Of a DNA stretch of 64,000 bases, positions 37,639 to 46,337 are shown piece by piece. The notes beneath the pieces are model-generated. The model searched no databases and was not told the DNA's origin. It saw nothing but the letters and a program-made list of their open reading frames with translations. Numbering within the stretch: position 1 is the first letter of the stretch; each line of letters begins with the position of its first letter. The stretch comes from an uncultured Chloroflexia bacterium. Lineage in GTDB: Bacteria; Chloroflexota; Limnocylindria; QHBO01. Where the stretch lies: assembly GCA_963810925.1 (NCBI GenBank), contig CAWEPF010000007.1:13250-77249 (forward strand). Direction: 5' to 3'. The translations under genes and the position numbers were made by a program.

Positions 37639-40503
<2,865 letters not shown>

Positions 40504-40633
40504 TCAGACCCATTGGTCCCCGCCCGGACCGCCATCGACCCCCCGGGGCGTTCAGAATGGGCATGCTCCCCCTCGATCGCAGCTTGACCTGGGATTCAAG
40601 CCAGCTTGAAAGCCGACGAGCCAAGATTGGGGG

Positions 40634-40662
40634 GTGACATCGAGCGCTCGTCCGGGTACGAT
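40634..40662 (+). promoter_or_regulatory. Sigma70-type promoter for the Cys-rich ORF and prfB
   Basis: GTGACA-17 nt-TACGAT. Confidence 0.6.
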
Positions 40663-40721
40663 GCTGACCTCAAGGCACGTCGGTCCTCGGAACGGCGCGC
40701 CCCACGTGGGCGGAGGCGTGA

Positions 40722-41033
40722 GTGAAGCAACTGGCGGGTGAGTCTCCCATTCAGATCTCTGATCTCCCCGCTTCGGCGCCCCCTCTTCCGGCACAGGATC
40801 TTCCTCTCGTCACCCGCTTCCGGGATCCATCGGTCCCCTACGAAGACCTGATCCAGTGCGAGCGGGACTGCATGCGGTGCAGCTACGCGGCCACCCTGGG
40901 ATGCGACGGCAACTGCGGGGCATGCCCCCGCCAGTCGTATTGCCCGTGCGTGAACCCCGCCAAGCTGCGATCTCGATCCGGCCGCCTGGCCGACGTGGAG
41001 CTCACCCTCGTCAACGACCTTGGACGAAATTAG
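40722..41033 (+). CDS. Hypothetical 8-Cys metal-binding protein (103 aa)
   Basis: GGAGG SD; C-x3-C-x2-C-x7-C-x3-C-x2-C-x5-C-x-C; GC-rich third positions in the core. Confidence 0.7.
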   Translation: MKQLAGESPIQISDLPASAPPLPAQDLPLVTRFRDPSVPYEDLIQCERDCMRCSYAATLGCDGNCGACPRQSYCPCVNPAKLRSRSGRLADVELTLVNDLGRN

Positions 41034-42148
41034 GACCGAGGCGGAGCGCTTGGCGCGCCTCGTGGCCGACACGGCGGTGCGACTTTGACTTGGTCACCAA
41101 GCAGGCCGAGCTCGAGGAGCTGACCGCCAAGTCGTCAGACCCCAACCTGTGGGACGACCCGGCCGCAGCCCAGACCGTGCTGCGCCGGGCGGATGAACTC
41201 CGTGACGAGATCACCTTCTGGACCGATCTCCAGGCGCGTGCCGCTGGGCTGGCCGAGCTGGCCGAGCTGGCGGCCGCGGACTCGGAGACCGATGGCGCGT
41301 TGCAAGCGGATCTCGAGAGCGACCTGGCAGCGCTCCAGGCCAGCTGGAAGTCGGCGGAGCAGCGGCTGCTCCTGGGCGGGGCCTACGACGAGCGCCCGGC
41401 CATTGTCTCGATCTACGCCGGAGCGGGGGGAACGGAGAGCCAGGACTGGGCCGAGATGCTGCTCCGGATGTACCTGCGCTGGGCGGAGCGGCACAAGTAC
41501 AAGACCGAGATCCTCGACCAGAGCGAGGGCGAGGAGGCCGGCCTGAAGAGCGCCACGGCGGCCATCGACGGGCGATGGGCGTACGGGCGGCTGCGCTCCG
41601 AGCGGGGCGTGCATCGCCTGGTGCGAATCAGCCCGTTCGACGGGCAGAAGCGGCGCCACACCTCGTTCGCGCTGGTGGAGGTCATGCCCGAGGTGCCGGC
41701 CGACGCGGAGATCGAGATCCGCGACGACGACCTGAAGATCGACACCTATCGGTCCAGCGGAGCCGGTGGCCAGCACGTGAACAAGACCGACTCCGCGGTG
41801 CGGATCACGCACCTCCCGACCGGAATCGTGGTCACCTGCCAGAACGAGCGGAGCCAGATGCAGAACAAGGAGCGGGCGATGGCCGTCCTGCGGGCCAAGC
41901 TCGTCGAGCGGGCGGAGGAGGAGCGGGAAGCGGAGCTGGCCCGCCTGCGCGGCGTGCACGTGGAGGCGGGCTGGGGCAACCAGATCCGGAGCTACGTTCT
42001 CCAGCCGTACACGATGGTCAAGGACCTGCGGACCGGGGTCGAGACCTCGAACCCCACCGCCGTCCTGGACGGGGAGATCGACGACTTCATCGAGGGCTAC
42101 CTGCGCGACCAGATCGGGACCGATGTGGACGGGAACGGCGCCGCATGA
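41020..42148 (+). CDS. prfB: Peptide chain release factor 2, programmed +1 frameshift (start uncertain)
   Basis: TTG..MDEIRTEAERLARLVADTAVRL, CTT TGA C at 41083-41089, then DLVTK...SPF...GGQ. Confidence 0.96.
41073..41089 (+). other. RF2 autoregulatory +1 frameshift cassette
   Basis: SD-like GGCGGTG, 3 nt, CTT TGA C. Confidence 0.92.
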
Positions 42149-45397: not shown

Positions 45398-45431
45398 GAT
45401 GGAGCCGGCCGGCAGGCCGGCTCTTTCCATC
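45398..45431 (+). terminator. GC-rich hairpin, terminator or attenuator-like
   Basis: GAGCCGGCC-GGCA-GGCCGGCTC then TTT; outer GATGGA/TCCATC pairing also possible. Confidence 0.6.
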
Positions 45432-45446
45432 TCACCCCCAAGGGAC

Positions 45447-45905
45447 ATGCCTGACCAGACCGTTGCGCTGAACCGCCGCGCCCGCCACGAGTTCGCCGTC
45501 GAGGAGACGCTCGAGGCCGGCCTCGTCCTGACCGGGACCGAGATCAAGAGCATCCGGGCCGGTCGCGCCAACCTGGCCGAGGCCTACGCCCGGATCGAGC
45601 GAGGCGAGGCCTGGCTCATCGGTGCGCACATCGCTCCGTACGAGCAGGCCAGCCGCTTCAACCACGAGCCCACCCGGACCCGCAAGCTGCTCCTCCATCG
45701 CGACCAGATCGCGGAGCTCGTGGGCAAGACCCAGAGCAAGGGATACACCCTGGTTCCCTTGAAGCTGTACATCCGCGGGGGAATCGCCAAGGTGGAGCTG
45801 GGCATCGGCCGCGGGCGCAAGGCGCACGACAAGCGCCGGGTCATTGCGGAGCGCGATGCACGACGCGAGCTGGAGCGCGAGTCGAAGGTCCGGGTCCGGC
45901 TCTAG
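45447..45905 (+). CDS. smpB: SsrA-binding protein
   Basis: NRRARH, EAGLVLTGTEIKS, RKLLLH, HDKR. Confidence 0.98.
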   Translation: MPDQTVALNRRARHEFAVEETLEAGLVLTGTEIKSIRAGRANLAEAYARIERGEAWLIGAHIAPYEQASRFNHEPTRTRKLLLHRDQIAELVGKTQSKGYTLVPLKLYIRGGIAKVELGIGRGRKAHDKRRVIAERDARRELERESKVRVRL

Positions 45906-45980: not shown

Positions 45981-46337
45981 GGGGATGTCAGGTTTCGACA
46001 GGGCCAACGAACCGGGAATCGCGAGCCGAGGTCGCCCGCAGGCCTCGTTAAACCGCGGGCAAACGTAACTGGCAACCGTCAGTTCGCCCTCGCTGCCTAG
46101 GCAGTGAGCACTGACACCGTCCCCTCTCCCCGGGCGGTGAAGGTGTCATCAGGGGAGATGCGGCACCGCCGACTCCGGTGAGCGGTGACAAAGAGCCGAA
46201 AGGCAGCCGGATAGGACTTGGAGCACCCCGCCGGTTGGGGGCCCGAGACCCGAAACCCAAATAGGCCGGAAACGCTCGTAGTGAGACCCGGGAACTCGGT
46301 TCTGGACGGGGAGTTCGATTCTCCCCCATCTCCACCA
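45981..46337 (+). ncRNA. ssrA: Transfer-messenger RNA; tag (A)GNRQFALAA at 46071-46100
   Basis: 5' GGGGATG..GGTTTCGAC, 3' GGGAGTTCGATTCTCCCCCATCTCCACCA; tag ORF after TAACT; extended -10 TGgTATCCT upstream. Confidence 0.97.

Follow-up and report, generated by a model that had tools for sequence, protein, structure and literature searches.

Between secA and prfB, the gene for release factor 2 (RF2), an uncultured Chloroflexia bacterium carries a small gene that encodes a protein with eight cysteines and ends inside the first codons of prfB, which raises the question of why a cysteine-rich protein should be encoded at the very entrance to the gene for a translation factor. We analysed this locus within a stretch of 64,000 nucleotides (nt) of contig CAWEPF010000007.1 (positions 13,250 to 77,249; hereafter the window, to which all coordinates refer). 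Our best explanation, to which we give a probability of about 0.78, is that the small gene and prfB form a translationally coupled unit and that the product of the small gene binds metal. The small gene and the signals ahead of it are the following.

40722..41033, + strand: small eight-cysteine gene, 103 amino acids (aa), GTG start, TAG stop
40857..40949, + strand: eight-cysteine core, residues 46-76, spacing C-x3-C-x2-C-x7-C-x3-C-x2-C-x5-C-x-C
40712..40716, + strand: Shine–Dalgarno (SD) sequence GGAGG of the small gene, 5 nt 5′ of the GTG
40634..40662, + strand: promoter-like site GTGACA-17 nt-TACGAT, a sigma-70-like consensus match only

The small protein is composed of a variable N-terminus of approximately 29 residues rich in Pro, Ser and Ala, the sequence VTRFRDP, the eight-cysteine core and a 27-residue tail. 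A first-pass annotation of this DNA had described the core as CERDCMRC-x7-CDGNCGAC-x5-CPC, and the motif stands exactly so at residues 46-76, with CxxxCxxC triads at residues 46-53 and 61-68. The conservation of the cysteines among homologues, on which that annotation had let its proposal depend, proved to be strict: the core with identical spacing was found in 112 of 112 genome loci, of which 32 come from relatives and 80 from public records (the two sets overlap in part and hold 103 distinct core DNA sequences), and all eight cysteines are invariant in alignments A1 and A3. The exact spacing recurs in 155 of 176 stored database proteins; the 21 that deviate are truncated or fragmentary, chimeric or frameshifted sequences, one unrelated repeat protein, one Cys-to-Phe variant and one deletion. 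Conservation extends to the non-cysteine residues E47, Y55, L59, D62, G63, Y73, P75 and V77. Members of the family measure 65-110 aa and fall into three length types, one of approximately 100 aa that shares the Pro/Ser/Ala-rich N-terminus and VTRFRDP with the window protein, one of 74 aa and one of 65 aa, and the core followed by a tail of 25-30 residues is common to all three. Isoelectric points range from 5.3 to 8.2, and neither a signal peptide nor a hydrophobic segment was found in the small-protein sequences. In one locus (L010:1501-1824), a tandem P-P-P-S-A duplication in the variable N-terminal stretch brings the protein to 108 aa against 103, which fits a disordered linker.

Comparison of the loci indicates that the small open reading frame (ORF) is almost certainly a genuine protein-coding gene, because it shows class-wide conservation at the protein level, substitutions of the coding type, and a conserved start codon and SD. 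Its frame has the order GC3 > GC1 > GC2 for the GC content of the three codon positions (0.78/0.68/0.53), and across the 103 distinct core DNA sequences the third position varies in 30 of the 31 core codons, the first in 15 and the second in 13. The mean ratio of nonsynonymous to synonymous differences (pN/pS) of these cores is 0.205, with pS near saturation at 0.50. Among the 32 loci of relatives, the start codon is GTG in 26, ATG in 4 and TTG in 2, and an SD-like motif precedes the homologous start in 29. The annotation had credited the ORF with its own SD and promoter, and both signals are found ahead of it, the former as GGAGG and the latter as the promoter-like site, which is the one sigma-70-like match upstream of the gene, where 50 shuffled sequences gave 0.0 such matches on average; among 10 same-genus loci, both hexamers are kept and the spacer varies. 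As an observation apart, a stretch of approximately 55 nt from the promoter-like −10 hexamer to the GTG (40663-40721; L003-L012) is near-invariant within the genus and not outside it. An RNA element in the leader was considered and dropped: alignment of the 5′ untranslated region from 14 loci gave merely a 5-pair hairpin of −5.8 kcal/mol and no convincing conserved RNA structure, and an Rfam search of 40300-41300 returned as its sole match a sub-threshold M23 inside secA (E = 0.64).

Judged by sequence searches, the small protein is a new family outside every described family. In a Pfam search, the 103-aa protein matched no family at E ≤ 1 (Radical_SAM, Fer4, DUF2946 and ArfA included); NCBIfam returned no family for two of the length forms and a best value of just E = 8.4 for the third; the best hit of a profile search of the PDB was a beta-galactosidase segment at only E = 0.34; and the ESM Atlas gave no usable match. 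None of the zinc-finger, zinc-ribbon or anti-sigma ZAS (zf-HC2) profiles of Pfam, NCBIfam or the PDB was matched. The 187 database homologues are all unnamed or 'hypothetical protein', and when all 1.84 billion representatives were scanned with HMMER, the small protein matched only 58 clusters.

By these surveys, the small gene is specific to the class Candidatus Limnocylindria of the Chloroflexota. An even sample of 301 Chloroflexota genomes showed it in 31 of the 33 that belong to Limnocylindria and in 1 of the 268 that do not; counted by family within the class, it occurs in 16/16 (window genome included), 15/15 and 0/2. A six-frame search detected a homologue in 36 of 41 related genomes, and the five misses are accounted for by two contig ends that cut prfB, two genomes in which prfB is unassembled and only release factor 1 (RF1) was found, and one genome (93% complete, 1.2 Mb) from which the small gene is truly absent. 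Of the 80 public records that carry the gene, 71 are titled Limnocylindria, Chloroflexota or 'Chloroflexia'; the other nine stand under other phyla (Steroidobacteraceae 5, Thermoanaerobaculia 2, Zixiibacteriota 1, Gemmatimonadota 1) and are probably mis-binned contigs, because they keep the same order of secA, small gene and prfB. Unpublished sequences enter these counts at three points: L015 (G021) among the loci, G015 among the five explained misses and L214 (G077) among 26 outgroup loci discussed below. Leaving out all three changes no conclusion, and none is part of alignments A1-A4 or of the remote jobs.

The junction with prfB is built from the following elements.

41020..41033, + strand: overlap of the 3′ end of the small gene with the 5′ codons of prfB (TTG GAC GAA ATT AG), 14 nt
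41020..41088, + strand: prfB 0 frame, TTG start without SD, 22 sense codons, in-frame TGA
41083..41089, + strand: canonical RF2 +1 frameshift site CTT TGA C; CTTTGAC is present in 112/112 loci
41087..42148, + strand: prfB +1 frame encoding the RF2 body, with PCRF and RF-1 domains and SPF and GGQ motifs

The TTG at 41020 is the sole ATG, GTG or TTG in the prfB 0 frame after a stop at 40951, and the 0 frame measures 20-22 codons across the loci. The SD-less TTG start and its 14-nt overlap with the small ORF had been noted from the window alone, and both reappear throughout the class, as does the link to prfB that the annotation had expected of homologues. RF2 lies 3′ of the small gene on the same strand in 111 of the 112 loci; the contig of the remaining locus ends 141 nt after the small-gene stop, yet carries CTTTGAC. 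Between the small-gene stop and the start of prfB, the distance is −14 nt for 96 of the genome loci and −1 for 6, and the other 10 range from 0 to +9. We further examined metagenome loci of the 74-aa type (L128-L207; 80 fetched, of which 78 were readable and analysed), where the distance is −4 to +11 nt and the junction reads TAGTG in 58 and TGATG in 20, with a −1 overlap in 75 of the 78. The class therefore contains three junction designs: the 14-nt overlap, TAGTG/TGATG and a short gap. No SD motif (GGAGG, GAGG, GGAG or AGGA) was found 4-17 nt 5′ of the prfB start in any of the 86 distinct junctions of the 14-nt-overlap type, the window included, so that prfB lacks an SD of its own in the largest family of the class; its start codon is TTG in 91 of the 112 loci. 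In two same-genus loci, L008 and L012, the RF2 body past the programmed shift is broken up into two or three frames; assembly indels are the most likely cause, and both loci were excluded from the RF2 alignment.

Translational coupling of the small gene to prfB, which was one of three options put forward in the first-pass annotation, is the option that we favour and consider likely, because a conserved stop on or beside an SD-less start, in three junction designs, is the signature of termination–reinitiation. The features by which a coupled pair is recognized, a conserved overlapping or abutting stop and start and, in the 14-nt-overlap form, a downstream start without SD, are both seen here, at distances of −14 to +9 nt in the 112 loci and −4 to +11 nt in the 78. 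SD-less coupling by termination–reinitiation is an established model system (PMC9955659, PMC2268962). The present junctions resemble that system in having TAGTG, TGATG, a 14-nt overlap or a gap of 0-9 nt next to an SD-less prfB start, and differ in that the upstream partner is a conserved cysteine-rich protein and that coupling is deduced from geometry. One further property of the junction, an apparent avoidance of TGA, the RF2-specific stop, was considered as a sign of RF1-dependent coupling and rejected: the small-gene stops of the 112 loci are TAG in 64, TAA in 45 and TGA in 3, as against 62% TGA in a set of 765 long ORFs from the genome. Where the overlap is 14 nt, the stop falls within prfB codons 4-5, and the loci are related to each other, and in the other family, the stop type is tied to the overlapping start (TAGTG 58, TGATG 20); because of these overlap constraints and the kinship of the loci, we regard the stop bias as a by-product and not as evidence.

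The small gene, with its own SD and promoter-like site, is the first cistron of a two-gene unit with prfB, whose TTG start is weak. In the mechanism that we propose, most ribosomes that arrive at the prfB start would have completed the small ORF and then re-initiated, which would make the small gene an obligatory entry point. Synthesis of RF2 would additionally require the canonical +1 shift at CTT TGA C, and RF2 output would thus be gated twice, since both translation of the small gene and the autoregulation of RF2 would be needed. The small protein would be produced in at least the same number as RF2, and as a metal-binding protein, it might work in trans together with RF2 or with the ribosome at termination. 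The textbook example of a protein that regulates its own synthesis through programmed frameshifting is RF2, and prfB of this class agrees with it in its short 0 frame, CTTTGAC, PCRF and RF-1 domains and SPF and GGQ motifs; it departs from the known arrangement in that the SD-less 0 frame starts inside or at the end of a conserved upstream gene.

Binding of metal by the eight cysteines, either in two Zn(Cys)4 sites or as iron–sulfur clusters, seems probable to us, with somewhat less assurance than coupling, because eight invariant cysteines lie within 31 residues of a cytoplasmic protein; disulfides are unlikely because a signal peptide is lacking. The CxxxCxxC triad forms the [4Fe-4S] site of radical SAM enzymes, and 2[4Fe-4S] ferredoxins carry CxxCxxCxxxCP. 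The annotation had likened the core to the former. CxxxCxxC does occur twice, but the small protein, at 65-110 aa, has no barrel (approximately 200 aa or more) and no Radical_SAM or Fer4 match, and the radical-SAM-like spacing is not a constant of the family, because a homologue fused to a ParB domain (P0202, described below) has an altered first triad, C-x6-C-x2-C. Similarly, Cys-Pro follows the sixth and seventh cysteines and resembles iron–sulfur ligands such as those of 2[4Fe-4S] ferredoxins, whereas the spacing of two CxxCxxCxxxCP motifs is absent from the small protein and Fer4 was not matched. The two CxxC pairs and the CxC would be equally compatible with two Zn(Cys)4 sites.

Whether the small protein also works with RF2 is a separate matter, on which we are much more reserved. 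That it is a functional partner of RF2 or of the ribosome is a possibility that we hold only tentatively, and the fuller version, in which an RF2 accessory metalloprotein is kept in fixed proportion by obligatory coupling and either binds RF2 or the terminating ribosome or gates RF2 synthesis in response to metal or redox state, is still more doubtful; the link between metal or redox status and termination drawn in the annotation remains inference. A prediction of the complex of the RF2 body (353 aa, alignment A2) with residues 30-103 of the small protein (alignment A1) and two Zn gave ipSAE values of 0.01 and 0.01, which count neither for nor against binding. ArfA, BrfA and ArfT are small proteins that recruit RF2 to stalled ribosomes; they are not known to be cysteine-rich or to be encoded beside prfB. 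The small protein is like them in being small, in having no catalytic motif and in a biology that would be tied to RF2, and its gene clusters with smpB and the gene for transfer-messenger RNA (tmRNA); it is unlike them in that Pfam shows no sequence relation, in its many cysteines and in the position of its gene next to prfB. We know of no dedicated protein partner that is encoded with prfB, and a full-text literature search, whose coverage mostly excluded subscription journals and supplements, retrieved no paper that describes this arrangement of prfB, any coupling of prfB to a cysteine-rich gene, or the small protein in Limnocylindria. What is new is the lineage-restricted protein family upstream of prfB; the frameshifted prfB and the coupling-type junction are of known kinds.

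The finding is of interest because a class of abundant, uncultured Chloroflexota of soil and freshwater places a strongly conserved eight-cysteine protein ahead of prfB, which in the 14-nt-overlap arrangement no longer has a ribosome-binding site of its own. Should the product bind RF2 or the ribosome, or should metal or redox conditions affect its translation, termination capacity would be tied to that signal, and a new layer of control would be added to a universal translation factor. Otherwise, the 65-aa form would offer an easily expressed, new candidate for a cysteine-rich metal-binding protein with a defined origin at the secA–prfB junction.

Several observations weigh against the explanation given here. 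Tight spacing of stop and start is usual in compact bacterial operons and is no proof that the products are partners. Folding of the junction RNA showed no excess of structure over shuffled sequences (z = −0.49), and occlusion of the prfB start is therefore not demonstrated. Contigs from RNA libraries of two studies span just 40710-40875 and possibly represent DNA carry-over; the uncovered parts of the stretch and the small word shares of the RNA runs have no bearing on the expression level. AlphaFold2 produced no confident fold, either from 23 sequences (mean pLDDT, the predicted local distance difference test score, 48.6) or from 147 sequences restricted to the 74-residue core and tail (mean pLDDT 50.6), and since the fold is not predictable, it is the cysteine pattern by itself from which metal binding is predicted; a low pLDDT would be expected of a mini-domain organized by metal, yet proves nothing. 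One family of the class, represented by two small genomes (1.1-1.2 Mb, 92-93% complete), has no small gene, from which it follows that RF2 can dispense with the small protein. In G032 (L114, G032:C2, locus 1377-1503), prfB follows secA by 55 nt and has an SD-like GAGG and a GTG start, and it appears to have either regained or kept its SD. Finally, only one homologue was found outside the class, and it forms the N-terminal module of a protein with ParB_N and helix-turn-helix (HTH) domains, unrelated to translation. This protein, P0202 (L127:310-1275, − strand; 321 aa), comes from genome G055 of another Chloroflexota class and aligns with the family by hhalign at a probability of 93.8% (E 1.7e-7, 39% identity over 61 columns). 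It has C-x3-C-x2-C-P-R, C-x-C-(V/T)-N-P and Y-x-D-L elements in common with the small protein and differs in the spacing of its first motif, in its fusion to ParB_N (24.4 bits, under the Pfam cut-off of 26.3) and HTH, and in its position away from prfB. On its short contig, which is possibly a plasmid or phage segment, P0202 adjoins an ORF similar to single-stranded DNA-binding protein. Another database entry, P0204, which joins the N-terminus of the small protein to a family-4 uracil-DNA glycosylase, was set aside as a likely chimera, being a single 1144-nt contig joined at a shared C-P-R-C-P-R-like stretch.

The most durable of the alternatives, which we nevertheless think unlikely, is that the small protein has a job of its own unrelated to RF2, for instance as a zinc or iron–sulfur carrier, a nucleic-acid-binding module or a redox buffer, and that it stands ahead of prfB as the result of insertion into an ancestral secA–prfB junction, its spacing reflecting operon compaction. 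The outgroup speaks for such a history: secA lies directly upstream of prfB in 7 of 26 prfB loci of other Chloroflexota (L212-L237) and in those 7 ends a few to approximately 30 nt from the prfB start, so that a tight secA–prfB junction looks ancestral in the phylum and the small gene would occupy a junction in which prfB already trailed an upstream ORF closely. The class family without the gene, and the fusion of the only outside homologue to ParB_N and HTH with no translation factor involved, point the same way. Against it stands the constancy of the link to prfB, which holds in 111 of 112 genome loci and in all 78 analysed metagenome loci through three junction designs, whereas the link to secA is much more variable (a gap of 222-1932 nt, with secA not found in the fetched flank of 3 of the 112 loci); moreover, no second, unlinked copy of the small gene was found in G000.

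A less probable alternative is that the small gene acts mainly in cis, as an upstream ORF (uORF) whose nascent cysteine-rich chain senses metal or oxidant and alters re-initiation on prfB. The absence of an SD from prfB in the 14-nt-overlap form would suit this, and there is a precedent in CruR (DUF2946) of Bordetella, a conserved protein-coding uORF that heads an operon and uses a CXXC motif to sense copper; its cysteines are proposed to serve as a co-translational metal sensor and in this way to control the genes downstream (PMC9426467). Like CruR as described there, the small gene is a small conserved protein-coding ORF with cysteines ahead of a downstream gene; unlike CruR, which acts through Rho-dependent termination and a RAPP arrest motif, the small gene displays neither, has no sequence relation to DUF2946 (Pfam, E ≤ 1) and precedes a translation factor and not a metal transporter. 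The RAPP motif is absent from all three small-protein tail types, and no arrest motif of any kind is common to them. The conserved non-cysteine residues and the low pN/pS fit a folded product and thereby speak against this alternative.

The other two options of the annotation would merge the small protein with RF2, and we consider both very improbable; that the small protein is separate from RF2 is, in our assessment, well-nigh certain. The first supposes a second programmed +1 slip at CTT-G (41019-41022) that fuses part of the small-protein output to RF2. CTT is indeed the codon at which slippage occurs in the canonical RF2 site, and from CTT G a +1 move would lead into the prfB 0 frame, but CTT occupies this place in only 52 of the 86 distinct junctions, the others having GTT (23), ATT (6), GGT (3) or AAT (2). 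What is conserved is NTT-G, GGT-G or AAT-G, which creates a TTG, GTG or ATG start for prfB, and not a slippery codon. The codon that follows is a sense codon and not a slow stop, the 86 junctions have no SD-like stimulator upstream, and this codon does not occur in two other families of the class, whose junctions are built differently.

The second supposes that RF2 has a real N-terminal eight-cysteine domain and that the stop and the overlap are an assembly indel error, and it is slightly weaker still. Deleting one T at 41020-41021 would join the frames, and four database entries (P0147, P0189, P0193 and P0199) read as fusions. The junction itself argues otherwise: a contig from an independent DNA run of another study matches 40967-41117 without a single difference or gap, 96 of the 112 loci, from many assemblies, repeat the 14-nt overlap together with its stop, and none of four runs reported an insertion or deletion. 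A continuous frame from the small gene into RF2 was not encountered in the loci, a stop being present in 112/112 genome loci and kept in all 78 analysed metagenome loci, which have the other junction type; in two other families of the class, the end of the small ORF either falls immediately ahead of the prfB start or overlaps it by one base. The fusion entries themselves carry little weight: P0189, P0193 and P0199 each exist as just one sequence on one short contig, P0147 is one cluster representative among 58, and in the 'long' entries P0124 and P0126 long stretches are plainly read in the wrong frame. The TAGTG/TGATG junction nonetheless offers a route to a natural fusion, because there the small ORF is in frame with the +1 body of RF2 and a single stop lies between them in 73 of the 78 loci. 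Read-through of this stop, or its loss as in P0189 and P0193, would yield a fusion that bypasses the frameshift; these two and P0199 are without the stop and read as fusions of 449-461 aa. Such fusions, if real and functional, would argue that the small protein and RF2 work together.

That the small ORF stays open merely by chance, in intergenic DNA rich in GC, can be dismissed, since long spurious ORFs are frequent at 69% GC but would not show the protein-level conservation across the class, the coding pattern of substitution and the retained start and SD described above.

In the window, the coupled unit is surrounded by the following genes.

37639..40503, + strand: secA, upstream neighbour; 218 nt separate its end from the small gene
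45399-45905: smpB, approximately 3.3-3.8 kb downstream of prfB together with the tmRNA gene
45981-46337: tmRNA gene (ssrA), tag GNRQFALAA

The gene order is secA, eight-cysteine gene, prfB, ftsE, ftsX, S41 peptidase, smpB and ssrA, and the small gene is thus located within a neighbourhood of termination and ribosome rescue. With no sequence relation to the small protein seen, the C-terminus of SecA carries a cysteine-containing SEC-C motif at 40449-40500, CYCGSGKKYKRCHG (Pfam SEC-C, E 4.9e-9), a second cysteine-based metal site that lies approximately 220 nt upstream of the eight-cysteine gene.

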